DNA of 55,595 bases, filler included, from Jimgerdemannia flammicorona (Eukaryota): NCBI GenBank assembly GCA_003990765.1. It is 2 parts of 2 records of this genome, joined end to end, with 100 filler letters (N's around TTAATTAATTAA, not from the genome) between each part and the next. Parts side by side here need not be neighbours in the genome. Positions count along the whole stretch, not along the records: positions 1 to 27,754 come from RBNJ01000608.1; positions 27,855 to 55,595 come from RBNJ01000609.1. One strand, 5' to 3'. Of this stretch, positions 10,479-41,201 are shown in pieces. Position 1 is the first letter of the stretch. Each line of letters starts with the position of its first letter. The notes beneath the pieces are model-generated. The model had not been told where the DNA came from and searched no databases. It saw only the letters and a list, made by a program, of their open reading frames with translations. The position numbers and the translations under genes were made by a program.

Positions 10479-12538
10479 TGTAAGAGGGTTGCTTTTTAGG
10501 GTAACCATTATGTAGTTCTGGAAAGGTTTTCAGGAAGTTCTGGATATTCTGGAAGACTGTTTTCTTATGGTCAAGATCAATTTCATATGGAGTACATCCT
10601 CTACACTTATTGATTTCAAGATCGGGTTAACATCTCAATCAAAGTCCTTTTTCGGACTAGTTCTGGATGTTCAGGATTTTCTATATTTCAGGAAGTTCAG
10701 GAAACTGAGACCAGCTTAGTTGAATTGATGTATTGCTGCAGACAATACCCAATTAGGAAATTTCGTGAGGGGGTTAGGAGTGGGACCTAACAGGAAGTGG
10801 ATTTACTTAAGAGTAGTTTGTGGGTTATTAAATAGGTTTATTCGCTATTCATGATATTGCTATACTAGGAGTAGTTATATGAAGGGATATTGTGGGGAAG
10901 TATTCAGGAATGTTCTTATGTGTTCGAGTCTGAGATTCTGAGGTCTGGGGGAGTGGGTATTTATACTAGTGAGGGGCTATCTGGACTATATTGAATATAG
11001 ATGTAGTACTAAGTGCCTTGCTGAGTTGGAATGCAGTCACGTAGTACAAGTGTAATCTGACATGTCAAGAGATCATCTGGCTGCTGAGTCAGTTCACAGT
11101 CATGTCGTACAGGACTAATCTAACTATATTATGACTGCTAGACTATTTATGGTTTAGACACTATCTGGGTAGTCTTTGATAACATCACCATTGATTGCAT
11201 CATCTCTGATGAAGTAGTTGTCTAGGAAGAGTGGTTTGTAGATTACTTCTCCTTATTCACTGAGGTAATAATACATTGGAACTTCATCTCCATCCTACAG
11301 GATAGTATCGTCTATCTTGTATACTGGATAAGGTATTGGTGGGTGAAGGAGGGGTGCATTGTTTTCACTTTCATCGGGTTTGCTGTCTGCATACCTTCTG
11401 TAAGTTATAGCACTATGAGTTGCAGGATTGTAGTAAGCTGGCAGCTGTGGTTCATATCATGTACTCAGATGGTGGAGTGGTTGGTTCAGTCTCGAGGGTT
11501 GTCTGGAGGTACAGGTTGTGTTCTCTGGTCTCTTCATTGTAGTTGAAATAATCGGGGGTGAATGCAGGTTGGTATTCGTGCCAGTGGTCATTATCTCAAT
11601 AAGTCTCATAGGCTGTTATGAATTGTTGTAAGTTCATCAGCAAGGTTGGTGGTGTGATCAGGGTTGGCAGAGATCCTTGGCTAGAGGTCATATTGGCATC
11701 AGAGGGATCATTGTCTTCTGCTTTGTCTTCATCGAAGTGGATTATATCATAGATATCTTTTATGGTATATTCAACTTGGGGCATTTGCAGGATATGATCA
11801 TTGGGGTGTGAGAAGGTTCTGTCTGTAGTTTCAACATACTCGAGGTACTTGTGGTTGAGTTCTTATATCATGTCATCAATTTGGCCATAGGACAGGGTAG
11901 CAATCATTTCACTGGTAGTAACTCAGAGGTGGGGAATAATGGTACTATACTCATAGAAGAGTTCTCGATGTTTGCAGGCGACGAGCTTCTGGTGTTGAGA
12001 CATCTTGGTAATGTCTATATCATGGTGGTGTTCGACCATGTCTTCCAGGAGGTGGCTGATCTGGTAGTAGCTTGAGATTTGTCCGATTCGGTGGGCCTCA
12101 CTAAACATGTTCAGAGCATTCCAATGGGCTTTCACAAAGTAGAGGGGTGCTAGGCTATGGATATTCATGAGGGGTAGAGAGGGTGTGGCTCAGTTGACAA
12201 TGGTATTCCAAATATCAGCATGGATGCAGGTATAGATCTTGGTGGTCATGTTTGTGTGTTTGGGAGTTATAGTTGTTGTTTTGTTTTAGTTCTCTGATTT
12301 GACGTGTCTTAGTACTTGGTATATATGCATTTGATCTTGATTGGTAAGATTCCGTTTATATAGATCTTATGTTCTGTGACTTCATATTGACTCAGCTTTG
12401 TGCACTGTGACTTCAGTTTGACTCAGCTTCATGATCGAGCAGGTGATTTCCAGATTTGTTCAGAGGTCATGTGTGATTTCAGTGGCTTGTTTGGAGGGTG
12501 ACATGTAATTTCGATGGCTTGGAGGTTGTGTGCTTACA
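10479..12538 (-). repeat. 3' LTR of element B (2060 bp)
   Basis: Direct repeat of 18828-20878 differing mostly by transitions; on the minus strand has TATAAATA (~10957), AATAAA (~10837) and TGACTCA motifs. Confidence 0.97.
11154..12249 (-). pseudogene. LTR-encoded accessory ORF of B (ancestral ~365 aa, unknown function), 3' LTR copy
   Basis: MTTKIYTCIHADIW...YYQISHLL...RELFYEYSTIIPHL...DYPDSV*; stops revert by single transitions; a 2-bp deletion here is absent from the other LTR. Confidence 0.75.
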
Positions 12539-12749
12539 ACTCTCCCCTTCTTAGCTTTCGACGTCCTTGTCGAGGCCTTCTAATTTCATTCAGTGGTATA
12601 GGGAAAATAGGCTTGCTTTCCGTTTTGCCATTTTTTCTAGAGGGTCAGTATTCTTATCTTGTTTTGCTGAGTTCTTGGTTTGGTCCCCAATAATTATAAT
12701 ATTTGGAAGGATAATATATGGGTAGGTGCAGAGTATTTGGTTCTAGTTG

Positions 12750-15700
12750 TTCAAGGAATCATATTCCTGAACTAGGTCGGTAGCATTCTGGAGATTGGTC
12801 TTGGGTTCCTAGGTTGCATTGTAGATCAGATAACCTTTCCATTTGACAAGGTACTCAGGGTGGCTCTTGTTGCCATGTTTGTTGAGGATTTGTTCAACTT
12901 TGTATTCTTCTTGGTCATTAATAATGATAGGTGCAGGTGGTTCAGTGGTCCGGTTTGGGAATAGCTCATCATCATTCTCATTATATTGCTTGAGATATTG
13001 AACATTAAAGACTGGGTGAATCTTAATGGTGTCTGGTAGTGCCAATTTGTAAGAGGTTGGAGAAACTTGTGCAATGACTTCAAATGGTCCAATGAACTTG
13101 CTGTTCAGCTTTGTAGATGGTCTATACTTGAGGTTGTCAACTCGGTATCCTCTAATGTCTAGTAGAACCTTTTCTCCCATATCAAAGATTTCTTCTTGGT
13201 GGTGTTGGTTAACATACTGTGACTGTTGTTCTTGGGCTCATGATAAATTCTCAATTGCGATCTGGCTTAGATTACACATTTAGAGTAAGAATTCTTCGAC
13301 AGCTTTGACTGTGGAGGGTTCTTCAGTAGTTTGGATGAGTGTCAAAGGGGTGTTTGGGTTTTGTCCAGTGTTGGCGAAGAATGGGGTCATTCTAAGAGAG
13401 GCTTGTTTACTATTGTTATATGTAAACTCAACTGCGGTGAGGTGTTCATGCCAGTCATCTTGTCTGTAGGAAATATAGTTTCTTAGCATTTGTTCAAGAG
13501 TTCGGTTCATTCTTTCCATTTGGCCATCAGTTTCTGGGTGAAAGGCTGTGGATAGTGCAAGTTTTGTTCCAAGGTGTGCATGGAGGGCTTTCCAAAAGTG
13601 GCTGGTGAATTTCGGGTCTCAGTTACTAACAATGATCTTGGGAAGACCATGATAGCAGAAGATATTATCAAACAAGAGTGTGGCTATGTCTGGTGCTGTT
13701 GCAGTAGTGGTAGTAGACACGAAGTAGGCTTATTTGCTGAGATAGTCCATAAAGACAATAATTGCATCTTTCCCGTTCTTGGTTTGAGGTAGTTGTACAA
13801 TGAAGTCTATAGAGATTTGTTCCCAATTTGTAGATGGTACTGGGATAGAGTGTAGTAAGCTGAGTTTTGCTAGTGTTGAGGACTTGTTTCATTGGCAGGC
13901 ATCACAGGAAGTGATGTAGGTTTTGAGCTGATCTACCATGCAGGGCCAATAGAAGTTTCAGGAGATAACTTCATAATATTTATCAAATCCTAAATGTCCA
14001 GCTGTAGGGGCATCATGACATTCAAATAGAATAGTCCTTTGGAGGTCTCGTTGTTTGGGATATACAGTCTGTCTTTGTAGTAGATAGTATTGTCCTTGAG
14101 TTGGTATTGATTGTACTGGGTATGTTTATCAGTATCATCACTGTTCAGGATATCACGGAGTGCTTGAGCTTCCTTATTATCAGTACATGCTGTGATAATT
14201 TGTTCCATGATAGAGTTTGTAACCAAGGTGAGAGTTTGGATAACCTCTTCGATTAGTGGTCTTGAGATTGCATCGGCAACAATATTTTCCTTGTCAGGGC
14301 AGTACTGGATTTTGTAGTCAAAGTTAGTGAGGACTTTCATCCATCTGGCTTGCTTTCGGGAAAGGGTAGCCTGAGTCTTGATGTTGACTAAAGACTTGTG
14401 GTCAGTCAATATAGTAAAGTGTGCTCCTTCTAGGTAGGGTTGCCATTTGATCAGAGTGTCTACTATGGCTAGCATCTCCTTCTCATGAGTTGCATAGTTG
14501 ATTTCGGCATCATTGAACTTGTAGGAGTGATAGGCTACAGGGTGTCCTTCTTGCATGAGTACTGCTCCAAGAGCTAGGTCAGAGGCATCAGTAGTGACTT
14601 CATATAGTAGGGGAGGATTTGCTGCTTGAAGTACTGGGGTAGTTATCAGGGCATCTTTCAGAGCTTGAAAGGTGGTATCTTGTTTGGGTCCCCAGGTTAT
14701 AAGATTGTTGAAGTCTTTTTCTTGTTTTATGGTCCAGGGTTGTTCTTGTTTCTTACTATGCTTGGTCATTTGAGTGAGGGCAGTAGCGATTTTAGCAAAG
14801 TTGACAACAAATCACTTGTAATAATTTGCTAATCTCAGGAATGACTGGAGGTCTTTCAGCTTCTTGGGTCTGGGCCAATCCTTGATTGCAGAGATTTTGC
14901 TGGGTTTCACTTTGATTCCATTTGGAGTGACAATATGTCCAAGGAATTGAATTTCTTTCAGGAGAAATTTGCACTTACTGAGTTTTGCAAAGAGTTGGTT
15001 TTCTCAGAGTTTCAGTAGTACTAGTTCAAGGTGTTCCTCCAGGGTTTTGCTGAAGACTAGGATGTCATCAATGTAGACAACAACAAATTTGTCTAGGTAT
15101 GGATGCAGAATGGTGTTCATCAGTATCTGGAAGGTTGCTGGAGCATTAGTTAAGCCAAAGGGCATAACCAGGAACTCAAAGTGTCCATAGTGAGTTCAGA
15201 AGGCTGTCTTGTAGATATCTTCTTCTTTCATGGCAATTTGCCAGTAGCCATTTCGCAGATCAAAGGAGCTCATGAATTGTGGGTTGGTAAGTCTATCAAA
15301 TATTTCATCAATCCTCAGTAGTGGGCAACAGTTCTTGATGGTCTGTTCATTGAGATCACAGTAGTCAATGTACATTTGCAGGTCTCCTCCTTTTTTAACA
15401 ACAAAGAGGACAGATGTGCCATAAGGTAATACACTGGGTCTGATGAATCCTTATTCTAGGAGTTCATCAATTTCTTTCTTGAGTGCATCAATTTCTCTCA
15501 GAGATATGTGGTAGATTAACTTGAAGGCTGGTTTGGCATCTAGAATAGTCTTGATAGTATGGTCTACTACTCGTTTGGGAGGTAGGCCTTTCGGGAGCTT
15601 CTTTGGGAATATGTCTCGAAATTTCTGGAGTAGTGGTCTGATATGGCTGTCAACTTTGGAAAAGTCTTCTTCAGAGTTCTCAGGTTCTCCTTTAGATGAG

Positions 15701-16180
15701 CAGATGGAGATGGTGAAGAGAGGGCATTTCTTGGCTAATTTCTTGAGTTATAGCTTGTTGATGTGAGTGATCTTTGGTACAGGGTCACCAGAATTAAGTG
15801 GGTCCTTTTCACCTTGCAGCTTGAAGTTGTGGTATTCTTTCTTGATGGTCAGAAAGTGGTTTACCCAATCAATCATAGGGTTCTCTTGTTTTAACCATGG
15901 AGTCCCAAGGATGATTTCATTGTCAGAAAGTGGTATGATTTGGAGGGTAACATGTACTCGGTAGTCACCAATTCGGAGGGGTAGATTGCAGACTTCTTTG
16001 CTAATAACATGTGAGGTTCCATTGGCTGTAGCAACTGTTTGAGTTTGCTATACTGGAGAGGTAAAGACCTTGAGTCTGTTTGCTATCTCTTCATTGATGA
16101 AGTTGCCTGAGGCACCACTGTCTATCATAATCTTGATAGGTGCTCAGTTGACAAAAGTCTTAAGGGTGAGCAGTTTGTCT
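12750..16180 (-). pseudogene. pol: Element B pol: protease, RT, RNase H, integrase, chromodomain
   Basis: [68 protein letters not shown]...YLVKWKGY. Confidence 0.95.
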
Positions 16181-16389
16181 GATCCAATGGTGGTGATTTC
16201 GGTTTTAGGAGCTCTCCTTCTGTTGTTTCTTCTTTGAGCCAGTTCATTGATATAGGAGAAGCAATCATCAATTATTCAGGAAGAGTACATTCCAATGCCA
16301 TGGAGATATCGGCCACTTGGTATATATCCATCTTCGATTTTCTTGTAGAATTGTTCTTCTTTGTTCATAATAGGTTGGGCTGGGGCCTT

Positions 16390-16810
16390 GTTTGATGAGC
16401 CAAATCCTTTGGATCCTCAGATAGTAGGTAGTAGTTTAGAGACTTCCTTGACTGTCAGAGTTGACTCAATTTTTTCGAATAGAATCTGGGCTATACAGAA
16501 ACCTATGGGGATCTTAAACGGTGTCCAATTATGGTTTCGGATGAGAATAATAATTTCGCCTATGTAATCCTCATCAATGACTCCTCTTTCTACTGAAAGT
16601 CCTTTCAATGCTAGGCTGCTGCGACAGCATATTCTTCCAACATGTCCTTCAGGGATTTGGATGCTGATTCCTGTGTAGATTTGTTTGACTTCTCGGTTGG
16701 AAACTGTAGTTTCTTTGGCTGCATACAGGTCATATCCAGCTACTTTTTGACTTTCTTTGGTTGGGGCCTTAGCAGTTTGTCTTAACTTGATAAAGTCTAG
16801 TGTTCTGGTG
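16390..16810 (-). pseudogene. dut: Element B dUTPase domain between gag and protease
   Basis: All five trimeric dUTPase motifs: AGYDL, RSSLA, GVIDEDYIGEI, IAQI, GFGSS. Confidence 0.9.
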
Positions 16811-16829
16811 GTCAGGTTGTTGAGGTGGT

Positions 16830-18700
16830 GCAGAGTGGTAATGGTTGCTCTTGTTGCTGTTCAGGGGTTTCGGTTAGGGCAGGCACTGGCCATGTGTCCT
16901 GTCTTTCGGCAATAGAAGCATGCTCCACTTCTTCGAAGTTCATTCCTTTCACCTTCAGTAAGTTTCTTGAAGGTACTTGGCTGGGTAGGTTCATGATTTC
17001 TGGGTGTCCAAGAGATAGATGTGGAGGGAGCTTGGGATGCTTCATGCTTGAGTTCTTCTTTCTTGGTCCAAGTCTTTTTCTTGTTGTTGAATTGTCTTCA
17101 GGGCAGAATTGGTCCAGCTGTTAGGATTCACTTGACCATAGTCTTGATTCTTGCCAGGTACCATTGTTGGTGGTCACAACCAACTGGGCGGCCTTGTTCT
17201 CGGATTTTTCTAGTAAGCCATTCAGGCAGAGCATCAAATAAATGGTCTGCTCTTGTACCATTTTGTACTTCATCGTTGGTAATATATCCTAAGCCAACAG
17301 TATTCAGGAGTGACTCAAGTTTTGTGCAGAAGGTTTTGAATTCTTCTTTGCCATGTACATCAAATTTGAGGCTGTGGAGTTTTACTCGAGATTCGGCAAT
17401 CATAGTTTTGCTGTGGTATTGAGCAATCATGAGTTATTTGAGTCCAGGGGCTGCAGGATGGGCTCTATATCCTGGGGTATTGTTTGCTGTATTCTGAGCA
17501 ACTACTGCAGGTCAGGTATCCCAAGTGAGGGGTTTTTCAGGAAGGGTTTGCCACCATTCTTTGGCAGGTCCTCGGAAGAATGTAACAACTCAGCAGACAT
17601 AGGCTATAGTGGTAGCAAAGAGTTGTTCCAGAGTGTGGTCTTGATTGTTTATCAGAATATGGTCAGCAACTTGCTCATTGGTCCATTGATTGGCTTTGAA
17701 GTTGGTGTCAACTATACTAATAAAGCTTTGGACTTCTTGTGTAGTACTATTGAAGGTAGGTAGGCTCAGATTTTTTGTAGATCAGGTCTGTTCAGCTAAG
17801 GCAGTAATGGTTGCTGCCATTATAGCTACTTGGGCTGTGAGATCAAGAATCTGTTGGTTCGCCATGTTGTTCACTGGAGGTGGTTGGACTACTGGTAGTA
17901 GTGTTACTGGTACTACTTGAGGTATTGGTGCAGAGTGTGATGGGGTTCTTTGGGTCTGTGTAAGTTGCTGAAGTAGTAGTTGTAGATCTGGAGTAAGGGC
18001 TTGATAGATAGCTGTTTGTTGTTGTGTAGGTGTATTCTGTCCTGATGGGAGTGTGTCTCCTTCTGTGGTGTATCCGGGATCGAATTCAGTGAGATACTCC
18101 TCCTCCTCTTCAGTTTGGTCTCCCTGTAATTGGGTTTGCTCGATGTCAAAGTAGACAGAATCAGTTATATATCTGATTTTGGATGGACTTAATTCAAAGT
18201 CAAGTTCAGGTTCGGTATTGATTTCAGATTCAGGTAGGGCTGTAGCAGGGCCTACTTCAGGTTCAGGGTCAGGTAGTTGATGAAGGGTTTCTCTTGCTTC
18301 TTCTTTAAGAATATGGTGGGCCTTGCTGTTCTGGAATCAGTAGTATAATGTGGTCTTGGTCCTGGTATAGTGAAAGTCGGTAGAGTTGAGCCACTTGGCT
18401 ACACTGGCTTGGGCTTCATGAGGGACTAAGGCTAGAAAGACTGCTGCTGGTTATCCTAGATTGCTCAGATTTGTGGAGCTGACAAAACTCTTATTGAGAA
18501 GAGTAAAGAAGGCTTCTATAAGACCTTCTTTGTCTTAACTTGCTGGGTGTAGTGCAAGGAGTTTGGTGAATAGGGTTTCACCTATTTGCTGGTTTAACCA
18601 GAGTACTTCTTTCTTTGAATGAAGTTTATCCCACTTGTTGCAGGTATGGAGGTCAAATTGTCCTTATATGTCAGGTTCAATTCTCTCCAGATTGTCAGAT
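16830..18700 (-). pseudogene. gag: Element B gag with long N-terminal extension and zinc knuckle
   Basis: CFYCRKTGHMASAC at ~16885-16925; capsid-like region upstream; 5' boundary approximate. Confidence 0.75.
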
Positions 18701-18811
18701 GGTTCAGGAAAAATTCCAGTTCAGAGGTTGGGCTTTATACCAACTTGTAGGAATTCTCAGAAGGGTTTGTAACAGGGTGAGAAAGTGTCTTGAAGTGGAA
18801 TTGGATTGTAA

Positions 18812-18824
18812 ACTGCTGCTACCA
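18812..18824 (-). promoter_or_regulatory. Primer-binding site of B (TGGTAGCAG, compatible with initiator tRNA-Met)
   Basis: ACTGCTGCTACCA 3 nt from the 5' LTR; decayed versions at ~26871-26883 (A) and ~47923-47933 (F). Confidence 0.8.
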
Positions 18825-18827
18825 AGT

Positions 18828-20878
18828 TGTAAAAGGGTTGCTTTTTAGAGTAACCATTACATAGTTCTGGAAAGGTTTTTGGGAAGTTCTGGATATTCTG
18901 GAAGACTGTTTTCTTATAGTCAAGATCAATTTCATATGGAGTATGTCCTCTATACTTATTGATTTCAAGATCGGGTTGACATCTCAACCAAAGTCCTTTT
19001 TCGGACTAGTTCTGGATGTTCAGGATTTTCTGTATTTCAGGAAGTTCAGGAAACTAAGACCAGCTTAGTTGAATTGGTGTATCACTGCAGATAATACCCA
19101 ATTAGGAAATTTCATAAGGGGGTTAGGAGTGGGACCTAATGGGGAGTGGATTTACTTAAGAGTGGTTTGTGGGTTATTAAATAGGTTTATTTGCTATTCA
19201 TGATATTGCTATACTAGGAGTAGTTGTGTGAAGGGATATTGTGGGGAAGTATTCAGGAATGTTTTTGTGTATTCGAGTCTGAGATTCTGAGGTCTGGGAG
19301 AGTGGGTATTTATACTAGTGAGGGGCTATCTGGACTATGCTGAATATAGATATAGCACTAAGTATCTTGCTGAGTCAGAATGCAGTCACATAGTACAAGT
19401 GTGATCTGACATATCAAGAGATCATCTGGCTGCTGAGTCAGTTCACAGTCATGTCATATAGGGCTAATCTAACTATATTATGACTGCTAGGCTATTTATG
19501 GTTTAGATACTGTCTGGGTAGTCTTCGATAACATCACTATTGATTGTATCATCTCTGATGAAGTAGTCATCTAGGAAGAGTGGTTTGTGGATTACTTCTC
19601 CTTGTTCACTGAGGTAATAATACATTGGAACTTCATCTCCATCCCACAGAATAGCATCGTCTGTCTTGTATGCTGGATAAGGTGTTGGTGGGCAAAGGAG
19701 GGGTGCATTGTTTTCACTTTCATCAGATTCACTGTCTGCATACCTTCTGTAAGTTACAGTACTATGAGTTGCAGGATTGTAGTAAGCTGGTGGCTGTGAT
19801 TCATGTCGCTCATACTCAGGTGGTGGAGTGGTTGATTCAGTCTCAAGGGTTATCTGGAGGTACAGGTTGTGTTCTCCAGTCTCTTCATTGTAGTTGAAAT
19901 AATTGGGAGTGAACGCGGGTTAGTATTCATACCAGTGGTCATTGTTCTAATAAGTCTTGTAGGCTGTTATGAATTGTTGTAAGTTCATCAGCAAGGTTGG
20001 CGGTGTGATCAGGGTTGGCAGAGATCCTTAGCTAGAGGTCATGTCGGCATCAGAGGGATCATTGTCTTCTGCTTCATCTTCATTGAAGTAGATTATATCA
20101 TAGATGTCTTTCATGACATATCCAACTTGGGGTATTTGCAGGATATGATCATTGGGGTGTGGGAAGGTTCTGTCTGTGGTTTCGATGTACTCGAGGTACT
20201 TGTGGTTGAGTTCTTGTATTATGTCGTCGATTTGGCCATAGGACAGGGTAGCAACTATTTCACTGGTGGTAACTTGGAGGTGGAGAATAATGGTAGAAGA
20301 GTTCTCGATGTTTGCGGACAACGAGCTTCTGGTGTTGAGACATCTCGGTAATGTCTGTATCATAGTGGTGTTCGATCATGTCTTCCAGGAGGCAGCTGAT
20401 CTGGTAGTAGCTTGAGATTTGTCCGATTCGGTGGGCCTCACTAAGCATGTTCAGAGCATTCCAATGGGCTTCCACAAAGTAGAGGGGTGCTAGGCTATGG
20501 ATATTCATGAGGGGCAGAGGGGGTGTGGCTCAGTTGACAATGGCATTCCAAATGTCAGCATGGATGCGGGTATAGATCTCAGTGGTCATGTTTGTGTGTT
20601 TGGGAGTTATGGTTGTTATTTTGTTTTAGTTCTCTGATTTGACGCGTCTTGGTGCTCGGTATATATGCATTTGATCCTGATTGGTAAGATTCCATTTGTG
20701 TAGATCTTGTGTTCTGTGACTTCATATTGACTCAGCTTTGTGTGCTGTAACTTCAGTTTAACTTAGCTTCATGATCGAGCAGGTGATTTCCAGATTTGTT
20801 CAGAGGTTGCATGTGATTTCAGTGGCTTGTTTGGAGAGTGATGTGTAATTTTGATAGCTTGGAGGTTGTGTGCTTACA
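18828..20878 (-). repeat. 5' LTR of element B (2051 bp)
   Basis: TG...CA ends, adjacent PBS, direct repeat of 10479-12538. Confidence 0.97.
19503..20589 (-). pseudogene. LTR-encoded accessory ORF of B, 5' LTR copy
   Basis: Same ORF with a different, 11-bp deletion (~20294); ORF-track pieces 20260-20508 and 20028-20363. Confidence 0.75.
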
Positions 20879-27854: not shown

Positions 27855-29030
27855 TTTTTTGTTTTACGGACTCTATGTCCCACAGATTTTTATTGGAAGA
27901 GAACCTAGACTATATAGGCCAAAACCCTCCCCCACCACCCATCAAGCACTGCCCCCCCATTAATCTAGGCTAGCTATTGTCCAGCAGCTTGACCATGCCA
28001 GGCACAGTAGGGCAAAGTAGCCCACACCTCATTCTGCATACCATACTCTCCCTACCACCAGGAGAAACCCAGCCATATGCCAATGACTGAAAGTGCATGC
28101 CCGAGAACCCAACATATGTACAAGGCCACACCCGAGCCAAATAGAATAGCCCCTGCCACCTCAAAGAGAATGATAAGCAAAGAAAAAACCCTCATCAAAG
28201 CACAATATGGTGGGTAGGGCCTAGTTCTCCCAGTTGAGATGAGTAGAGGACTTATACATGAGGCAGGAGGAGACTCCCAATACCCCACTACTCAAGCCTG
28301 TGGTCCTTGATCATGTTGCCATATCAGCTCCTGGTTCTAGTTGAGTGTAGCCAAGATATCTGAAATGGGTAGCCTTGGGCCCCCCGACCCCCCCTGATGA
28401 CTGGGGCCCAACTCCATGAATTGCCAAAAGAAGCTGAGAGTGACACCTACCACCTAACCATACTGCACCAATCAAAAGGCCCCACCAAAGCAGCACCCAC
28501 CCCAGCCCTGATGACTGCCCCCAGTCTGGCACCCTACTGGTTCACCATAATCACCCTTCCTCCTATCTGTGACAGCCATCTCCTCTCCCATCCCAACATC
28601 ACCTGAAAAACAGTCACCTATGCCAGAACCACACTTGCCGGGAAGCTCGCCAAAGCCAAAGGGCCCCACTATAGGCACCGAGGACCTGCAGATAACCTAC
28701 ACTGAGCACTTGATGCCCAAGGTCGGCTAACTCCCTATGTAGCCCAAGACACACCAAGACAACTCCTTGTTGGTGATGGCAAAAGGAAGAAGGTGCCATA
28801 CCAAAATGGGTACACCCCAGACACAGCTGAAGGCATCAGAATCCACGAAAAAGTGGAGGAAGCACTGATCCGACACTGATAAAGGGGCAACTCATCACCA
28901 TTGCCCTCCTCCCACCATGTCCCTACAGGCACAGCAAACCAACCCGAGGTAGAGGGGGTAATATTAGGGGAAAGGGGACTCGGAAGATTGCCTATCAAAC
29001 CTTGTGACTGGTAAGGTAGTGGAGAAAGGG
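27855..29030 (-). mobile_element. Probable 5'-truncated LINE of a second family
   Basis: T-run then GGACTCTAT...TTTATT, like the 3' end of LINE copies 1 and 2; G/Trp-rich minus strand; no clear RT motif seen. Confidence 0.45.
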
Positions 29031-29997
29031 GTCAGTGAAAAGTCAGCTTTCATCACCCTAGATAGAATCTACATCTACCTACAAATGCCATTTGGAATGT
29101 ATAATGCACCAGCAAGTTTCCAGCAAATGATGAACAAAATCTTCCACTATGATATGGGAAGATGGATGATGGTCTATGTTGATGATGTAATCATCTACAG
29201 CCAGACACCAGAAGAATACCTGCAGCACATCTGGCAGATAATGGAAAGACTGAGAAAGTATGGCCTATACATCAAGCCCAAAAAATGCAAATTTGCAGAA
29301 ATCGAGATCTCCTATCTTGGCCACATTATCAACTGAGATAGAACACACACAGACCCCCTCAAGATACAAGCAGTGGCAGCATACCCAAGACCCACTACTG
29401 TTACAGAAGCCCAAGCCTTCATGGGACTTGACTTCTATTATTACAGATTTATTAGAGGATTTTCTAATATTATGGGACCAATCTATGAACTTAACAAGAA
29501 GGATACCAAGTTCCAGTGGACTGGCAGACAACAAAAAGCATTTGATGAACTCAAGGTCAGACTGACCCAGGCATCCATCCTCAGAAGACCTGACTGGACT
29601 CAAGAATTCATCCTACAGACTGATGCAAGTGCACAAGGACTAAGAGTAGTCCTAGCTCAAAAGAAAGATAAAGTGGAGTATATCATTACATATCTCAGCC
29701 ACAGAACCTGAGGAGCTGAAAAAGAATACAAATCCTACAAGTTGGAATGCCTCGCAGTCATCTGGGCCATAGAAAAGTTCCACTACTACTTGGCTGGAAG
29801 ACACTTCACTATCCAAACGGACCACTCAGCTCTTATCTGGCTACTGACAACTGGACAACTCAAAGGAATCTATGCCAGATAGATAATGAAGTTGCAAGCT
29901 TATGATGTAACTATTGTACACTGCTCTGGAAGAACCAATGCCAATATAGATGCCCTCTCATGGACACTCCAAACTACCTCCAACCAATAAATCAATT

Positions 29998-31191
29998 ATG
30001 AATAAGGAGCTCTACTATGGAATTATCACATACCTGAGACAGCGAAAGATACCCCAACATCTAGAAGAATGGACACAAATGATTATCAACAGAACATGGA
30101 AACAATTCGAAACTGATGAAGAAATACTGAAGAAAGGAAAACTACTAGTCATACCAGAACACAAGAAGGAGCAAGCGATGAAATCAGTATATAAACTTGG
30201 CCATCTAGGAGGAACAAATATATATGACAAGGTAAGAAGAACAATATGATGGCCAGGAATGGAGGAAGATATCAGACAATTTGTCAAGATCTGTGATGAA
30301 TGCCAGAAACAGAAACAAGACCAATGAAATCAAGTCCCAGGATCAGTATACATAGAACCAGTACCATTCGCCCACATTGCAATAGATGTAATTGGCTCTC
30401 TACCCTTAACTTTGACTGACAACCAATACATCATCATCATCATAGACCTTTTTACAAAATGGATAGAAGCAGGACTCCTTATGGAAGCCAATGCACAGTC
30501 AATCGCTGATCTCTTCCACAAAGAAATCATCTGCTGGTTCAAGACCCCAACACAAGTAACTACAGATAGAGGAACAGAATTTGTGAACCAGTTCTTTGAA
30601 GTTCTCTACAAGAAGTACAAGATCCAGTATATTCGGACCACAGCACATCACTCTCAAGGAAATAGACAAGTAGAAAGGACCAACAAAACCCTCAAGAATA
30701 TTATTGCCAAGATCTGTAATAACTACGAGAACTGGGATCACTATCTGCCAATAGCATTATCTGCTCTCCAGAATATCTGATCATAAAGTACCCACTTTAC
30801 TCCTCAAGAAATGCTGTTTGGAGAAGAATGTTCTCAGGGAACCCTATCATCCAATGGAGATGCTGTATAGAAATATGTGGACATGGAAATATGGAGACTA
30901 CACCAAATCAGGAAGAAGGCTGAGGATTATATAACCAAGGTACAGATACTATAATGGAGGAATGCAGAAAAGACCCACAAACCCTTGGAGATTATCAAGA
31001 TAGGAGATAAAGTCCTAGTGTATCAGAATATGGTAGAAGCTTCATGGTCATGAAAACTGGAGCCCAAGTGGGAAGGACCTTACCTTGTGCAAGATATAAA
31101 AGAGACCACCTTTTGGCTACAAAAACCCTTAGGCACAATAATCTCCACCACTATTCACTAAAACTGACTCAAGAAATATCATGGCCAGTAA
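29998..31191 (+). pseudogene. int: Element D integrase as its own ORF (MNKELYYG...LKKYHGQ*)
   Basis: ATG 29998 lies in the +1 frame, upstream of the RNase H stop at 30003-30005; HHCC, DDE and GPY/F motifs. Confidence 0.85.
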
Positions 31192-31657
31192 CAAAAGTAC
31201 TGTAATGGCACTTAAGATCACTAGTGCTGCCCAAAGAGCCATTGAGAGACAATAGTGCACCACCGAGCCTCTGACCATAGAGGAGTCTTATGACAGTATT
31301 CAAAGTATCATGTAGACTCATCTCTCTTAGATCTCACACTTCAAGGCCTATCAGCATTGAAATGAATTCCAAGAGTACTTCAAACTTGGCCAAGTACTCA
31401 ACCAAGACCCAGAAATGACCAAAGAAAATTGAATCGCAGAATGCCAGCTCTCCTATTTCCAGATTACCATTATTAAGAGAATCCATAAGCTATTCTGAGA
31501 GAATGAACCAGCACTAGCCCACCTGCGAGAAGTGACTCCCTCAGACTTTGACTGAGTCAGGCAATACTATTGGGAAACAGTAATGCAATAAATCATACAA
31601 TACAAGACCATACAGACCATTGAAGCCTGGGAGTTTGAATTGATGCTTCAAGGATAA
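31181..31657 (+). pseudogene. Element D ORF3 (~158 aa), homologue of the B and C accessory ORFs
   Basis: MASNKST...EYFKLGQVL...IIKRIHKLF.ENEPALAHLREVTPSDF; single frame with revertible stops; ATG overlaps the end of the integrase ORF. Confidence 0.7.
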
Positions 31658-31679
31658 GATTATCTATTCAGGAGAAAGT

Positions 31680-32139: not shown

Positions 32140-32605
32140 ATAACTAATTTGAAATATAACTACTTTGATTATTTGTTTGCAAAACAAATGACCTGTATTA
32201 TACTTAGGACAAATGCTTTAAATTTGTAATCAGAATAAATACTTTAGATATATCTTTCTAAATTATGATTAATACTCAAAGACTCTAAGTATAACTATGA
32301 AATCAATAATCTCTATAGTATAATACTTAGCTGAGACTATTTCTGATCTTATATAAATGACTTAAGATATTCTTACAAAAGTACAATATTACTAGTCTAA
32401 GTATACTAATTAGAAGTAAAGAGAAGTCTCCTATAATATTAGAGACTAGATCATGCTTAAGACAGACTATCTATACCCAGAGATTCTAATATAGTAATTA
32501 TTAAAGAAGCTCTAAGTTAGAAGAATTATACCCTACTAAATTCTGAAAAATTCAGTAAAGTCAACTACAAACTGAAGCTTCTCTATAATATCTATATATA
32601 TATAC
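32140..32605 (+). pseudogene. Very decayed Ty3/Gypsy integrase C-terminal remnant
   Basis: AT-rich; reads EKFSKVNYKLKL near 32545-32580, like the post-GPY/F region. Confidence 0.4.
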
Positions 32606-34138
32606 TATCACATAGTAGTTACTGAGTCCTTCAAATATGCCAGATTCTCTTCAAGGTGTATCTCTTAGACTAACTCAAGTTTGTTATAAGCAAGTTCTTA
32701 TTGGAGTGCCTTCTCAAGGTCTTATAGTCCTCAAACTTCTTATCTTTAACTGTCTTGTTATCTCTTAGATTGCTTGCAAGGAAGTGTGTATAAGTAAACT
32801 TGACTAACTTTATTTCAGAGAAAATAAGAGGAGTATTTATACAAAATATAATTCAATGATTGCTAAGATATAAAGCTAAATATAAATTACAATAACTAAA
32901 ACTACTAAGTTCCAGAGTCGGCACTGATGGTTGTACAGGTTCAGAATACTGGTACATATAATTCAGTATAACAAAGAACTTAGAGCAGAAAGTTCAGGAT
33001 CATGGGGGCTTTATCATCATTATCATTACTGAAGGAGATGAGATTTACAAATTCATTGTCACACAATTCGCATGCTTTGCATATGTCAATGTCACATGGG
33101 ATGATGTCATCGCTGATGACATCATCATGTTTAGCAGAATAAGATCTAGAGCTCTCCAGTCTATGAGGTTCTCTTCCAAAAAATAAAGAACAAATGTGAG
33201 ATCTTGGGGAGGTCTAATCTGGATGCTTGGGCCTTGGAATACTGAGATCAATCCTTGCAGAAATTGGTCTGGGTTGTCCTGAAGGATGAGATACCAGAAG
33301 TCTTCTACTTCATCACTGTTGAGGGTAATAGTGGACTGAGCTTCTGTAGCTACCCTGGCTTCTAGTGCATTGATATGGTGGGATGACAGGTCTCTGAAAT
33401 CTGAGACTCTAACATACTTCAAGTTGGGGATCAACTATGGTGCATACCTGAAGATCTGATGGATCTTCTTAGCTGTTCTTGCCTCATATATATCCATGGG
33501 AGTGGTATCTTGTAGCTCTTGAGGGCTGGCCTGTGGAAACTCCTGGCAGAGGAGGTTTCCTATTTTGTACTCCTGCCACATTTAGAGGCATTTAGTAGCA
33601 ATGGTGATCCTTATTTCTATTTCATAGTGGTAGAGGATAAAGTGATAGGGATCTGCAGTATCCAGGCTAACACTAGGAGTCCTTCTTGAGCAGATCCTCA
33701 TGGCTCTTCTGATGTCTTATAATATCCTTTCTTTGACTGAGATACCCTAGTGGTTCCTTGACCTTGAGGTTTGGCAGGCAGCAGGCATTCTGTTTGTGGT
33801 AAGTCTTTGAGCTATTTTGGGATTGGTGGGTCTTGTTGGTTGCTACTACTGTAGTTCCTTGATCCTTCTTTTATATTCTTCAGAATGCTTGTACTGTGGT
33901 CACAATGACTCACAGTTGGTCATCATTGCTCATCTCATATGCCATATGATCTTCTTGTACTCCAATCTGGTGGCTTGTAAGGAAAGGCTGTCTCCTGTGC
34001 TGATGTCATCATTCTGGGGTCACCATTACATCTTCCAGGATCTTCCTGAGCATCCTTATTCATTGGTCCAGTCTTAAAAAATTTGCTGATCCCATAACCT
34101 CTGACAAGGGGTTGAAAAGTGGTGTTTATAGGCTGACA
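32606..34138 (-). repeat. 3' LTR of element C (1533 bp)
   Basis: Direct repeat of 39711-41201; followed by TCTTCCCTTT (PPT on the minus strand). Confidence 0.9.
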
Positions 34139-34160
34139 TCTTCCCTTTGTATTTTGGCAT
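32980..34160 (-). pseudogene. Element C accessory ORF (~396 aa) starting before the PPT and reading into the 3' LTR
   Basis: One frame from MPKYKGKMSAY to ...ILNFLL*, with only revertible TAA/TAG/TGA stops and one 10-bp deletion relative to the 5' LTR copy. Confidence 0.75.
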
Positions 34161-34376
34161 GATGGTGAAGAGTCACTCCCTTTATATAGAGCAAGGGCCT
34201 GATTCTGATCTTGACCAATCAGTTGATGGTTCGAACTTCTCTGACTTTGAAAGTCTCATGGATGAGTAGTTGTCAGTGCCATATTCCTTAGAGAATGGTC
34301 CAGACAGATAGCCTGCTGGTCATGGGACATGCTGTTATGATTTATGGACTAGAACCTCATGGACAGTCATCACATT

Positions 34377-35582
34377 TTACTTCTCTTGTATAGGTTCATA
34401 GTACTTCTTGAGTCTGTTCCTATGTACTATGGTAGGCAGTATGGTCCCTGAGATTTTTCTAAGCCAGAAGGTGGTTCCTTTGATATCTTGCACATAGAAG
34501 GGTCCTTCCCATTTGGGCTTCAGTTTTCATGACCATGAGACTTCTACCATATTTTGATACAGTAGAACCTTTTCTCCAATTTGGATGGGTTCTAGGGCCT
34601 TGTGATTCTTTTCCACATTCTTCCTTGTCAGCATTTGTGACTTGGTGATGTAATATTCAGCCTCCTTCCTGATTTGGTATAGTCTCCAGATTTCTGCATC
34701 AACTCATCTCCAAGTTAGGTCTAGATTTGTAGCTGAGGTTCCATCAGAATCTTCTTCTCTGAAGAGCAGCTCTCTTAGGGTAAAGTGTGTGCTCTGTGAC
34801 CATATGTCTCATAGGACAGAGAGGGTGGTTGGGAGATAGTTATCCCAATTCTCATATGTCTCTGAGATCTTTGCTAAGATGTTCTTGAGAGTCTTGTTGG
34901 TTTTCTCTGTCTGTCTATTTCCTTGAGGGTGGTATGCAGTGGTCTTGATGTGCTGGATCTTATATTTCTGATATATTATCTTGTGGAATCTATTGACAAA
35001 TTCCATTCTATAGTCTTTTGTAATTTGCTTAGGTGTCTTGTAGTGGTAGATGATTTCTTGGTGCAAGAAGTCAGCTATAGAGAGGGCATTGGCTTCTTGT
35101 AATACTTCTGCCTCTATCCATTTGGTGAAGAGGTCTACAATAACTATAATATAGCAGTTTCCTGATAGTGTTACTAGTAGTGGTCCAATGATATCTATTG
35201 CGATGTGGTGGAAGGGGATAAACTCAATTCTTGATGACCTGGATGCCTGGTCTTGCTGATCTTGTTTCTGTTTTTGGTACTTATTACACCCTTTGACAAA
35301 TTGGCACATATCTTCTTCCATCTTAGGCCACCACATGGTTCTTTTTGCCTTATCATATGTATTGGTTCCTCCTAAGTGTCCTTGCTTGTGTACTTTCTTT
35401 ATTACTTGATACTTCTTATGTTCAGGTATTACTAGCTTTCCTCCTTTTCTGAGTATAGTGTTGTCTAGTTTAAACTATTTCTAAGTCTGGTTGATGATGG
35501 TTATTGTCCAGGGTTCAAGGTGGTTGGGCATCTTCTGCTGCCCAAGATAGCTGATTAATCCATAGTATAGCTCCTTATTCAT
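34377..35582 (-). pseudogene. int: Element C integrase as its own ORF (MNKELYYG...EPIQEK*)
   Basis: ATG 35582-35580 lies just upstream of the RH stop at 35577-35575, in a different frame; GHLGG, IAIDIIGPL, HPQGN, WEGPF. Confidence 0.87.
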
Positions 35583-38500
35583 ATTGAATAGTCTTGATGG
35601 GGATATTTTGAGGTGTTCTTGAGAGTGTATCAGCATTGGTATTGGTCATTCCTGAGTAGTGCTTGACAGTACAGTCATACTCTTGAAGCCTGTAGATCTA
35701 TCTGACATATATTCCTTTGGGGTTCAGAGTGTGGAATAGCCAGGCAAGAGTGGAGTGGTCTGTTTGAATAGTGAAGTGTTTCTTGGCTAAGTAGTAGTGG
35801 AACTTGTCTACTGCCCAAACTATTGCTATGTAAGCATTCAAGCTTACATAACTCATAGTTCTCTTCTGCACTACAGGTACCTTGGCTTATGTAGGAGATG
35901 ATATATTCATGTTCATCTTTCTTCTGAGCTAGGACTGCTCCACTTGTGTCTGTCTGCAGGATGAATTCTAGGTTCCAGTCTGGTCTTCTGAGGATAGGTG
36001 CTTGGGTTAATCTGGTCTTGAGTTCATTGAAGGTTTCTTGGTGCTCCTTGGTCCATTTGAATTTGGTCTCCTTCTTCAGTAGCTCATAGATAGGTGCTGC
36101 AATGTTGGAGTATTCTTTGATGAATTTTCTGTAGTAGCTGGCCAGTCCAAGGAAGGCATAGACTTCTGTGGTTGTTCTGGGTCTCAGGTAGGCTGCAACA
36201 GCCTCAATCTTCATGGGGTCTGTGTGGATTCTAGTCTGGTTGATGAGGTGTTCTAGATAGGTGATTTCTTAAGCTGCAAACTTGCATTTCTTGGGCTTGA
36301 TGTAGAGGTCATGCTCCTTGAGCTTCTTGAGGGCTAGCTATATGTGATTGATATGTTCCCATGCAGTATTGCTGAAGATAATTATATCATCAACATAGAC
36401 AAAGAGCTATTTTCCAATCTCATTGCTGAAGACTCTATTCATCATTCACTGAAAACTTACTGGGGCATTGCACATTCCAAATGGTATTCACAGGTATATA
36501 TAGGTGGCATCAGGTGTGATGAAGGCTGATTTCTCACTGGCATCTTGAGTGAGACCAATCTGATGAAAGCCTGAGAACAGATCCAAGATAGTGTAGTATT
36601 TGGCTTTACTTCCAAGAGTGGTAAGGATTTCTTGAATATTTGGCAAGGGCTGTCTATCCTTCTTGGTAATGGCATTGAGTTTCCTGTAATCAATGCAGAG
36701 TCTTGGTGTGAATTCTCCAGACTTGCTTCCTTTTTTTGGAGTAAGGACAATAGGTGAGGCCCAGGGGCTGATAGCTTGCTTGATGATTCCAGCTTCTTCC
36801 ATTTCCTTGAGTTCTGCTTACAGCAACTCTCTGTAGGCAGGTGGTATGGGTCTGGTTTTCTGATAGATGGGCTTGGTATCACTAGTGTCAACTTCGTGGT
36901 AGTACTTGGGTTCTTGATTGTGGATATCCCTGAAGTCTGTAGCAAGTACTCCTTTGTTCTGATACAGGATCTTGAGAAGTTATTCCTCCAGGGGAAAGTT
37001 TTCTCCAATAGTATATGTGTGCTTATTCTGGTCCTTGTCTTTCTTATGTTCAAGTTTGGTAATCTTGGTGGTAGCATAGGCTCCTCTTCCAGTAGATCCA
37101 AAGTCTTGTTCTTCTCTCTTGATCTTGATGAGTTTGATAGCTTCAATGATCTGGGGTTTCTTGATTTCGTGGATCAGTATCTGGCCAATCCTGTCATACT
37201 TCTTGACTTCAAAGGGGGTGGTGTGGTTGTGATTTCTGACTATGAGGAAGATCTTGCCAGTGTAATCAGAGTCAATTACTCCTTCTTTAACTGAGATTTC
37301 GCTTTTGGCCAGACTGCTCCTGGTCTTGATGATTCCAGCATGGTCCTCTGATAGCTTGACTCCAATTCTAGTGCCAAGTAGGGTGGTGGTCTATGGTTTG
37401 AGGGTAGTATCTTAAATTCTGGCAAGGTCTTTTCCTATGGCTCCTTTAGTCTTGTATTCTGGGATCTTGGCTTTGGGGTGAAACTTCTTGACCTTGAGGG
37501 TGATGTCTGATTCTTGTTCCTCCTCATCATTGCTGTCAGCTTGGAGCTCTGGGGGCTGGTCATCTTCTTTGGCTTTTCTTTTTGCTTTGGTAGCTTCTTG
37601 CTCATATTTCTGTTAGCAGATTTTTCTGACTTCACTGATACAGAACCAGCAGTCATTCAGGTGTTCAGAGCAGTACATCCTAGTACTATGGGGGCATCTT
37701 CCTTGAGGGGCATAGCCATCAATGATCTTGTTGTACCACTGCTCATCTGTGAGCTTAGGTATCTTGTTCTTATTCTTGTTCACCAAGTGCATGAAGACCT
37801 CTGTCTTCTTTATCTCCTTCCTCCATGTCTGGTAGAACTCCTTTGTGGACATTGATAGAGACTCATATCTTTCTTCCTCTATAGTTGATCTGCATCTTCT
37901 GGGCATTGAGGTCAATGATGGCCTTGGCCTTATGAAGCCATTGGTTGCCAATGAGGATGTTATAGTTGGTGGCACTTGTACCAATCATATCTACTAGGAT
38001 GGTAGCTCCTCTTATCTTGATGGGAACTTCTCAGATTTTGCCAAAGGGGGTAGCTCATGTACTATCTGCTGTAACATAGACCATTTTGGTGGACTCTTCA
38101 ATGTCCCAACCTAGGTGGTCAATTGCCTTCTTGCTCATGAGACATCTTCCAGCACTAGTATCAATGATGGCATCAAAGATACAGTCTTCGATTTGAAATG
38201 GGGTATAAGCTGATGTCTTGTACTGGTCTTCAGATTCTTCACCTGAGTTCTTGGATTCTTCTTGTACATTGTGAGCTTCTACAATCTTGTACTCTTAATT
38301 CTTGGTAGTAGTTGCAAGTTCTACTCTCAACTGCTGTCTGAAGGCAGGGACTTCGGCTAGCTGTCCAAAGGTGGCATTGACCTTCTGTTCCTTGAGGTCC
38401 TTGTAGATATCATACTGGTGGATCTTGGTCTTGTACAGCTTCTGTTCCTTCTTACTTTCACTTTCTCCTGAGACTGGAGTAGTACCTACAATAATTTGGT

Positions 38501-39600
38501 GGACAGCTTCATCTAACTCTATGTCTTGATCAATCTCCTTGGGTTGGGTCTTGCTTTGAATAGTAATAGCTGGGGTCTTCTTTGGTCTTCCAACTGGCTT
38601 ACTGTTGCTCTTCTTATCATAGGGCTTGGACTGGGTTCTGGTATCTTCAGTAGCTGGGTAGAATTCAAGCTCCTTGTAGTATTCTTCATCATCAGTGTCA
38701 CCAATCTCCTCAATGACTACTGCATTGGTTTGTTCTCTGGTTCTGCTAGCATTACTTGATTGGGCTTTGTATCTTATTTTGATCATGCAAATTCTTTGCA
38801 TAGTGGCCTTCTTCTCCACATCTGAAGCATGTGATATTATATTCTTCTGTAGCAGCTGCAAATCTCTGCACTGGTCTCCTGTTGGCACTTTGGACTTCTC
38901 TAACAACATCACCAAGATGTGCAGTCATCTCAGCGAACTGCTTGGCAAGTTCTTCCACTGGGTCAGCTTTGGCTATCTTGGGGGTAGGTGGGGTTGGTTG
39001 TCTGTTTACAACTGTGGCAGGTAGGATACTAGTTGGCTTTGATGGCTCCATCTTGATACCAGTTATTTTCTCCATTGAATGTTTGACAGGGTATCTGGCA
39101 GTCCAATATCTCTGTGCAAAGACCACTTTCTGATTAAGGGTCAGTGCAGCTGGGGTAGACTGGATTGCTAGAGCAATTTCAGGGTGAACTCTTTTGAGGA
39201 AGGTTGAATCCACTATTTGTTCCTTAAGGTGGTCATCATAGCCAGCCAAGACAATCTGGTGACAGATTCGGGTATAGAATGAGTTGGGATCTTCACTAAG
39301 TCTCTGGAAGATAGTATTGAGTTGATCTTTGAGAGCTTGCTTGATCTCTTCAGTATAATATATTATTCTGAGGAAGACCTTCATGTTGGCAAGTTTGGCT
39401 GCACCAGCATCAGCAATGGTGGCTGCATTAAACTTGTCTCTGGCAGGTCCTCTGAGGCTGACTGGTAGAAGGGCCAATTGAGCATCTACACCACAGGCTT
39501 GTATGGTGGTGAATTGTTCAATGTCTTCAATGAAGGTCAGGATTAACTCTTCAGTAGTATATCTATAGAATATGGGAGGATATATTTCCATCTTGTCTTG
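35575..39600 (-). pseudogene. gag-pol: Element C gag-protease-RT-RNase H
   Basis: ORFs 38752-39591, 38295-38915, 36488-36802 (SPWASP, LCIDYRKLN, LDLFSGFHQI) and 35675-36214 (QTDTSG). Confidence 0.92.
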
Positions 39601-39710
39601 AATTCTTACAGGGGTGACTCTTGTAGTCAGGGTAGTTGTTGTGGGGTTATTTGTTTTTCAGCTTGAAAGTGAGGGATTCATCTTGAATCACTGGTCAATG
39701 GGTATCAAGT

Positions 39711-41201
39711 TGTCACATAGTGGTTGCTGAGTCCTTCAAATATACCAGATTCTCTTCAAGGTGTATCTCTTAGACTAACTCAAGTTTGTTATATGTAAGC
39801 AAGTTCTTATTGGAGTACCTTCCCAAGGTTTTATAGTCCTCAAACTTCTTATCTTTAACTGTCTTGTTATCTCTTAGATTGCTTGCAAGAAAATGTTTGT
39901 AAGTAAACTTGACTGACTTTATTTCAGAGGAAATAAGAGGAGTATTTATATAAAATATAATTCAATGGTTGCTAAGATATAAAGCTAAATATAAATTCCA
40001 ATAACTAAAACTACTAAGTTTCAGGGTCAGCACTGATGGTTGTTTAGGTTCAGGATGCTGGTATAATTCAGTGTCACATCAGAATACTGGTACTGGAATA
40101 ATTTTGCATCACCTCAGAATACTAGTGCTGGCATTATTCAGTATAATAAAGAACTTAGAGCAGAAAGTTCAGGATCGTGGGGGCTTCATCATCATCATCA
40201 TCACTGAAGGAGATGAGATTTACAAATTCATTATCGCATGATTCACATACTTTGTATATATCAATGTCATGTGAGATGACATCATCACCAATGATATCAT
40301 CACATTTGGTGGGGAAATCGGGAATAAGATCTGGAGCTCTCCAGTCTATGAGGTTCTCTTCCAAAAAATAAGGAATAAATGTGGGGTTTTGGAGAGGTCT
40401 AATCTGGATGCTTGGGCCTTGAAATACTGAGATCAATTCTTGCAGGAATTGGTCTGAGTTGTCTTGAAGAATGGGATGCCAGAAGTCTTCTACTTCATCA
40501 TTATTGAGAGTGATAGTGGACTGAGCTTCTGTGGCTACCCTGGCTTCTAGTGCATTGATATGGTAGGATGACAGGTCTCTGAAATCTGAGACTCTAACAT
40601 ACTCTAAGTTGGGGATCGACCATAGTGCATGCCTGAAGATCTGATGGATCTTCTTAGCTATCCTTGCCTTACATATATCTATGAGAGTGGCATCTTGTAG
40701 CTCTTGAGGGCTGGCCTGTAGGAACTCTCGGCAGAGGAGGTTTCCTATTTCGTACTCCTGCCACATTTGGAGGCATTCGGTAGCAATGGTGATCCTTGTT
40801 TCCATTTTACAATAGTAGAGGATAAAGTGATAGAGATCTGCAGTACTCAGGCTAACATTAGGAGTCCTTTTTGAGTGAGTCCTCATGGCTCTTCTGATGT
40901 CTTAGAACATCCTTTCTTTGACTGAGATACCCTGATGGTTCCTTGACCTTGAGATTTGGTGGGCAGCAGACATTTCATTTGTGGTAAGTCTTTGAGCTAT
41001 TTTGAGATTGGTGGGTCTTATTGGTTGCTGCTACTATGGTTCCTTAATCCTTATTTTATATTCTTCAGAATGCTTGTACTGTGGTCACAATGACTCACAG
41101 TTGGTCATCATTGCTCATCTCATATACCGTATAAACTTCTTGTGCTCTGATCTGGTGGCTTGTAAGGAAAGGCTGTCTCCTGTGCTGATGTCATCATTCT
41201 A
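39711..41201 (-). repeat. 5' LTR of element C (outer ~120 bp missing)
   Basis: Starts TGTCACA; identity to the 3' LTR ends at ~41201. Confidence 0.88.
40155..40886 (-). CDS. Still-open 243-aa part of the element C accessory ORF in the 5' LTR
   Basis: ATG-initiated uninterrupted ORF containing the conserved EYEIGNLL...IAKKIHQIF...IPNL core and an acidic tail. Confidence 0.55.
   Translation of the reverse strand: MRTHSKRTPNVSLSTADLYHFILYYCKMETRITIATECLQMWQEYEIGNLLCREFLQASPQELQDATLIDICKARIAKKIHQIFRHALWSIPNLEYVRVSDFRDLSSYHINALEARVATEAQSTITLNNDEVEDFWHPILQDNSDQFLQELISVFQGPSIQIRPLQNPTFIPYFLEENLIDWRAPDLIPDFPTKCDDIIGDDVISHDIDIYKVCESCDNEFVNLISFSDDDDDEAPTILNFLL

Follow-up and report, generated by a model that had tools for sequence, protein, structure and literature searches.

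An uncharacterised but conserved accessory gene in the long terminal repeats of two Ty3/Gypsy lineages of Jimgerdemannia flammicorona

Two distantly related lineages of fungal-type Ty3/Gypsy retrotransposons in Jimgerdemannia flammicorona carry a conserved, uncharacterised accessory gene that is embedded in their long terminal repeats (LTRs); genes in this location are otherwise best known from mouse mammary tumour virus (MMTV). The gene was analysed in a stretch of 55,595 nucleotides from assembly GCA_003990765.1, referred to here as the window, which consists of parts of records RBNJ01000608.1 and RBNJ01000609.1 joined end to end and holds two full-length elements, B and C, together with a 5'-truncated relative of C, element D. 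In B and C the accessory open reading frames (ORFs) lie on the sense strand and wholly within the LTRs, and each of these elements therefore has two copies of the frame. The original prediction, made from the sequence of the window, had described an uncharacterised accessory family carried by three different lineages in three different positions 3' of pol. Sense-strand ORFs are indeed present at 11154-12249 and 19503-20589 (B), 40155-40886 (C) and 31181-31657 (D), and both the positions and the number of lineages had to be revised.

Structure of the elements and location of the accessory ORF

Element B (10479..20878, minus strand) is a full-length element, recognised by its Pfam matches and LTR pair, with a 3' LTR of ~2060 nt at 10479..12538 and a 5' LTR of ~2051 nt at 18828..20878, both on the minus strand and delimited by self-blastn and their termini. 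In the self-blastn of the window the direct repeats 10479-12542 and 18828-20882 are 91% identical over 2066 nt. These repeats are true LTRs: their termini, TGTAAG...TTACA, have the TG...CA form, a GGAGT 5-bp target duplication flanks the element (10474-10478 and 20879-20883), the primer-binding site TGGTAGCAGCAG, which we take to be a match to the initiator methionine tRNA, is found 3 nt past the 5' LTR, and the purine tract AAGAAGGGGAGAG precedes the 3' LTR. The flanks of B are joined across the whole element by contigs in two of four public runs (10445->20908 and 10465->20916), and the element is very abundant, with 8870, 1557, 767 and 1001 contigs matched in the four runs. Read-through frames give the Pfam domain order gag zinc knuckle, dUTPase, protease, reverse transcriptase (RT), RNase H, integrase, SH3 and chromodomain, with matches to RVT_1, RT_RNaseH, Integrase_H2C2, rve, SH3_Tf2-1 and Chromo (E 5e-10). 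B is a Ty3/Gypsy chromovirus, since RT, RNase H, integrase and a C-terminal chromodomain were all found.

Element C (32608..41200, minus strand) was likewise recognised as a full-length Ty3/Gypsy element from Pfam matches and an LTR pair. Self-comparison sets its 5' LTR at 39713..41200 (~1488 nt) and its 3' LTR at 32608..34015 (~1408 nt), both on the minus strand, and the two are 88-91% identical by self-blastn. No matching 4-5-mer was found at the flanks of C; the 5' edge of the LTR is ambiguous in the mutated sequence, though the LTR pair is clear. Its Pfam domain order is zinc knuckle, protease, dUTPase, RT, RNase H and integrase. Element D (27855..31186, plus strand) retains a partial RT, RNase H and integrase by Pfam. 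The original prediction had given a chromodomain to B and none to C or D; B has one, and no Chromo match at E <= 0.001 was obtained in the three sense frames of C and of D, in which decay could mask a weak one.

Comparison of these elements reduces the number of lineages. C and D share ~70% nucleotide identity and ~60% amino-acid identity in pol, and form one lineage; two lineages, not three, therefore carry the gene. B and C belong to different lineages because their dUTPase domains stand in different places, preceding the protease in B and following it in C (internal regions 12543-18827 and 34016-39712, respectively), and because their pol proteins are only 30-39% identical. The two dUTPases themselves are ~39% identical. 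The claim that the gene spans lineages thus stands for chromovirus B on one side and the C/D lineage, with no chromodomain detected, on the other, but not for a third lineage.

The B accessory ORF lies at 11154..12249 in the 3' LTR (minus strand, ~365 codons, with five in-frame stops and a frameshift near 11455) and at 19503..20589 in the 5' LTR (minus strand, with a frameshift near 20295 and four stops), so that the copies span 361-365 codons, each with stops and one frameshift. In C the 5' LTR copy occupies 40155..40973 (minus strand) and comprises 272 codons counted from a conserved start; a single internal stop is found at codon 24, and the 243-residue part at 40155-40886 (P0001) is intact. 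The 3' LTR copy, at 32980..33788 (minus strand), has four stops and a 10-nt frame-shifting deletion. The two copies have the conserved start codon at positions 33788 (3' LTR) and 40973 (5' LTR), so that the Met-Pro start precedes the ATG at 40886 by 29 codons, in a stretch that the stop interrupts. The range of 32980-34160 proposed earlier for C was too long, as it overruns the LTR start (~34015) into non-coding sequence. From the 5' end of the LTR the ORF begins at ~290 nt in B and ~228 nt in C; the two ORFs occupy equivalent LTR positions, embedded at similar offsets rather than in the different positions 3' of pol first proposed. The D ORF (31181..31657, plus strand) contains seven stops, and the ATG of this ORF overlaps the final codons of pol; with a single decayed copy present, the LTR borders of D cannot be placed.

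Repeat mutation

The decay of these copies has a distinct signature. All 167 differences between the LTRs of B are transitions, as are 127 of the 134 between those of C, which bears out the earlier view that this genome strongly mutates its repeats. In 65% (B) and 58% (C) of the LTR differences the base after the C state is A, CpA and CpG contexts being favoured, and CpG observed/expected within the elements is 0.06-0.24. Contigs of run X1 matched to B differ from it at 1077 places, 964 of them by transitions. The pattern resembles repeat-induced point mutation (RIP) or deaminase activity. LTR divergence cannot be used to date the insertions, because the differences are overwhelmingly transitions from hypermutation.

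Relationship of the B, C and D accessory proteins

Twelve public homologues of the C ORF were identified, at 28-77% identity, and the frame is open in all of them. A word-indexed search yielded four homologues at 61-76% identity, a profile scan of 1.84 billion representative proteins returned five sequences at E <= 0.001 (one known and four new) down to 28% identity, and a cluster look-up gave three further members. A metagenome scan with P0009 found one locus, L001, with an intact 291-codon ORF; a metagenome scan with the family alignment produced 256 pattern matches and no relative. An imperfect direct repeat of ~30-40 nt, noticed by eye at 172-198 and 1475-1500 of L001, ~1300 nt apart, flanks the ORF of that locus.

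The relationship of D and of B to this family was tested with a hidden Markov model (HMM) built from 11 members of the family from outside the window, with E values for a single target. C and D match in BLASTP with E 0.005 over 34 residues, and D scores 13.3 bits against the HMM (E 2.2e-6), a value equalled by one of 5000 shuffles, the profile-aligned part being 31232-31594. By these comparisons D belongs to the same family as C.

For B, homology has to be weighed against the reading that the LTRs hold two unrelated genes, in which the B ORF would be a separate family, its likeness to the other would be due to chance and composition, and only C and D would share their gene by descent. That reading gains from direct comparison of the proteins: BLASTP between B and C is not significant (best E 0.61, at non-corresponding positions), and hhalign gives P 0.01 and a probability of only 4%. 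The B 5' LTR piece, shortened by its frameshift, reaches only 0.4 bits, which 196 of 2000 shuffles equal. P0006, the only homologue of the B ORF, starts at a Met just past most of the shared core, so the N-terminal core of B is known from one element only and may not be coding there.

Set against these points, the HMM free of window sequences gives the B protein 10.6 bits (E 1.6e-5), a score reached by none of 5000 shuffles (maximum 9.4), whereas the reversed B sequence scores -2.6 bits. When the window was cut into 1662 overlapping six-frame pieces, the best after the C LTRs were D (13.1 bits) and the B 3' LTR ORF (10.1 bits), compared with 3.4 bits for the best unrelated piece. The HMM alignment is collinear over B residues 28-128, and the single hhalign match joins C 41-119 with B 58-133, so that HMMER and hhalign choose the same collinear ~100 residues, at the stretches where a shared core had been predicted; the original prediction is upheld as to the place of the core. 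The two ORFs also share their location within the LTR, and an acidic tail is common to the two proteins. We regard B as probably homologous to the C/D family, the link being moderately supported and not proven, and give the two-gene reading a minor though appreciable chance.

Independently of this link, the B ORF is also conserved as a protein. P0006 (247 residues) is 64% identical to its C-terminal two thirds (E 3e-55), and at seven of the eight stop columns in the B copies the sister LTR copy or P0006 has Q or W, which fits C-to-T and G-to-A decay of CAA, CAG and TGG codons. The eighth stop, at codon 20, is present in both copies and has no outgroup.

Properties of the protein

The family is uncharacterised, as had been proposed: eight family sequences gave nothing in Pfam below E 0.16, and the profile had no matches at E <= 10 among PDB sequences. 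AlphaFold, run on a nine-sequence alignment, returned a weak model with a mean predicted local distance difference test (pLDDT) of 49, in which helices cover residues 18-120 (block means 50-76) and the pLDDT stays below 50 over residues 131-243. Searches with this weak model found no fold match, the best VIA-align Z being 4.1 over 48,161 chains and the best Foldseek E against PDB 0.39. In the ESM Atlas the nearest clusters to P0001 are "hypothetical proteins", mostly of Mucoromycota, at 0.85-0.87, below the 0.9 bar; P0006 gave no usable feature match there, with an Atlas model pLDDT of 0.39. Gene callers have already called accessory ORFs of this kind as hypothetical host proteins. No membrane segment was found in six family proteins, whose maximum 19-residue Kyte-Doolittle means are 0.64-1.05, in agreement with the earlier statement that the product is not env.

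In composition, the family proteins have isoelectric points of 4.1-4.9, the last third carries a net charge of -15 to -21, and conserved hydrophobic motifs stand beside acidic runs in the tail. The first 40 residues have a net charge of +8 in P0003 and +5 in L001, both full-length, and only +1 in P0009. The protein consists of a short basic start, a helical core of ~100 residues with conserved motifs, and a long, strongly acidic tail that is probably disordered. Such a make-up would fit a nuclear adaptor or activator, a suggestion drawn from composition only, as are the trans-activator and silencing-suppressor roles put forward in the original prediction.

The same features could be read in terms of a post-transcriptional cofactor, a Rev/Rex/Rem-like adaptor whose arginine-rich start would bind the RNA of the element and whose C-terminal hydrophobic motif would aid export, translation or packaging. 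The basic start of P0003 and L001, the conserved hydrophobic motif near the C terminus and the helical core speak for such a factor; the near-neutral start of P0009 and the failure to find a sequence or fold match to proteins of this type speak against it, and to our knowledge a 100-residue acidic tail is not typical of them. We consider this cofactor reading improbable.

Conservation of the ORF as a gene

Open frames could arise fortuitously in A-rich LTRs, with the "homologues" being repeat copies called as genes, and two observations are in keeping with this: all homologues lie on short contigs, and the window copies are decayed, the LTR pair being no better conserved inside the ORF than outside. 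Comparison beyond the window argues otherwise. The frames remain open at 28-41% identity and the insertions and deletions are in-frame, a Met-Pro start is conserved in four homologues (P0003, P0008, P0009 and L001), and the alignment has fewer gaps in the C ORF than in the flanking LTR sequence. Between C and L001, whose proteins are ~39% identical, the proportions of nonsynonymous and synonymous differences are pN 0.41 and pS 0.71, giving a ratio (dN/dS) of ~0.27. The alignment is protein-guided and so biased to low dN; off-frame controls address this bias, and reading the same nucleotide alignment one or two bases off gave 0.84 and 1.17. The original prediction had named a ratio near 1 as contrary evidence, and for this pair, one C copy against a metagenome homologue, the ratio is well below it. 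Differences fall at codon positions 1, 2 and 3 in numbers of 130, 91 and 154, the second position changing least. The C ORF is a real gene, its protein is under purifying selection while evolving faster than pol, and a fortuitous origin of the frames, already disfavoured, is very improbable.

Equally, the ORF might be a C-terminal extension of the pol polyprotein into the 3' LTR and no separate gene, which would suit the frame shared by integrase and LTR ORF at the C 3' end and the abutment of the D ORF on the end of pol, but this is scarcely credible given ~12 stops in the ~190 codons from integrase to ORF in C, compared with ~1.3 per 100 codons in coding parts, ORF frames that differ from the pol frame in B and D, an in-frame stop 54 nt upstream of the ATG in L001, and the finding that none of 822 candidates scored among proteins of 427-2000 residues, itself weak evidence. 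On the strength of the upstream stop in L001 and of the lack of longer fused forms in that scan, we treat the accessory gene as separate from pol.

LTR signals and a proposed mode of expression

The LTRs of B and of C have a TATA box and then AATAAA ~190-200 nt past the stop codon of the ORF, at ~1567 and 1690 of 2053 nt in the B LTR and at 1249 and 1278 of 1488 nt in the C LTR. As the genomic promoter and polyadenylation signal are usually located there, the gene would lie in the unique 3' (U3) region. Further signals stand upstream of the ORF. A TATAAAA motif precedes the ATG by 87 nt in C and by 80 nt in L001, and no ATG occurs between this motif and the start codon in the C 3' LTR copy and in L001. 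Directly 5' of the C start codon lies a 17-nt block (40977..40993, minus strand) that differs by one base from its counterpart at 33792-33808 in the 3' LTR, and the 3' LTR version is identical to that of the distant homologue L001. We considered this block a candidate splice acceptor, as it contains a YTNAY-like CTTAC followed by AG. The upstream TATAAAA, the ATG-free gap and the conserved block make it possible that the gene has its own promoter or is expressed from a subgenomic RNA.

In light of these data, we propose that the accessory gene lies in U3 of the long LTRs and would be expressed either through a promoter of its own, upstream of the ORF, or through a subgenomic RNA made from the 3' LTR. 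The product may be nuclear and act in trans on the element, activating its transcription or countering its silencing; a U3-encoded nuclear regulator of this type is our best guess at the function. The explanation as a whole, comprising elements B and C with unusually long LTRs (~2.06 and 1.49 kb) and an accessory gene embedded in them, a C/D family with a probably distant homologue in B, the U3 location and nuclear trans action, is one that we favour with somewhat better than even confidence.

Several points weigh against it, besides the weak direct comparisons of B and C given above. With no fold, Pfam or PDB match and a weak structure model, there is no functional lead. The borders of U3, R (repeat) and U5 (unique 5'), promoter use and splicing are predictions. 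The homologues are all found on short contigs, and a single family in a single organism may account for some of them. An upstream TATA motif was also considered in B and set aside, as it occurs in one LTR copy only and is probably a product of C-to-T decay.

A more far-reaching form of the proposal, which we think rather unlikely, treats the LTR as a self-contained cassette with its own promoter, the accessory gene, the genomic promoter and the polyadenylation signal. Either LTR, or a solo LTR, would then express a trans-acting activator or de-silencer of the element family, and recombination, not descent, would have carried the cassette between two unrelated Ty3/Gypsy lineages, chromovirus B and C/D.

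Sequence context of the elements

Two runs of 44 N (27755-27798 and 27811-27854), 12 bases apart, bound D on its 5' side. Repeats of ~500-600 nt occur in both orientations at 43154-49710 and at 31679-32140, within a stretch of 26-30% GC, and one copy is placed directly downstream of the D ORF; these repeats could be LTR fragments of the D family.

Within B, contigs of runs X2 and X3 replace 274 nt between the chromodomain and the polypurine tract (12586-12861) by 26 other letters, which is a length variant of the 3' end of pol in other B copies. The insertion site of B is one copy of a 4.5-kb G-rich repeat that is found in minus sense and in tandem at the left end of the window (1214-10235) and in plus sense, inverted, at the right end (50945-55539). 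The repeat shows extreme strand asymmetry, with a GC skew of ~0.4-0.49, and is a G-rich long interspersed nuclear element, because it codes for an AP (apurinic/apyrimidinic)-type endonuclease (E 1.4e-4, below Pfam's cut-off) and a reverse transcriptase (E 5e-15).

Discussion

The closest parallel in location is the superantigen gene (sag) of MMTV, which like the B and C genes is a sense-strand coding ORF filling most of a long LTR and present twice per provirus. MMTV Sag is a type II membrane glycoprotein, whereas the B and C proteins lack any hydrophobic segment and are not similar to it in sequence; the setting also differs, as the present genes reside in a Ty3/Gypsy element without env in a fungus-like host, with a U3 location predicted from sequence. 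Judged by titles and abstracts, nearly all of the papers on LTR ORFs among the matches listed concern MMTV, and titles and abstracts in our literature search described no LTR-embedded protein gene in a fungal retrotransposon.

Retroviruses offer further models in their 3'-proximal accessory genes, such as Tas/Bel1 of foamy viruses, Tax of human T-cell leukaemia virus (HTLV) and nef of human immunodeficiency virus 1 (HIV-1), the last of which overlaps U3, and some of their products carry acidic activation regions. As accessory genes acting in trans on the LTR, Tas/Bel1, Tax and nef serve here as a working analogy only: no sequence or fold similarity between retroviral trans-activators or nef and the accessory protein was found, the fold comparison being made with a weak structure model.

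The sharing of one accessory type by different lineages also has a precedent. In bdelloid rotifers, Rodriguez et al. 2017 (PMC5408684) describe ORF3 as one accessory type in unrelated LTR-retrotransposon lineages, several of them with dUTPase, and typically expressed from spliced messages. The likeness to the present gene lies in an accessory ORF common to different lineages of LTR elements. The differences are that the ORF3s of rotifers stand downstream of pol and ahead of the 3' LTR, whereas the B/C gene is inside the LTR, and that they belong to known families (GDSL lipase, DEDDy exonuclease, env-like), none of which the present gene matches (PMC5408684). Among fungi, BcGypsy1 of Botrytis cinerea is reported to have an additional ORF, "brtn" (10.1101/2021.04.13.439636); this is again a fungal Gypsy element with an extra ORF whose role is unassigned there.

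Outside retroviruses, the accessory genes that LTR retrotransposons carry remain poorly understood. For annotation, the present case means that LTR-embedded ORFs are being listed as hypothetical host proteins by gene callers. For the elements themselves, which are present in high copy number in a soil eukaryote, such a conserved gene would be a concrete candidate for a function in self-expression or in resistance to host silencing.

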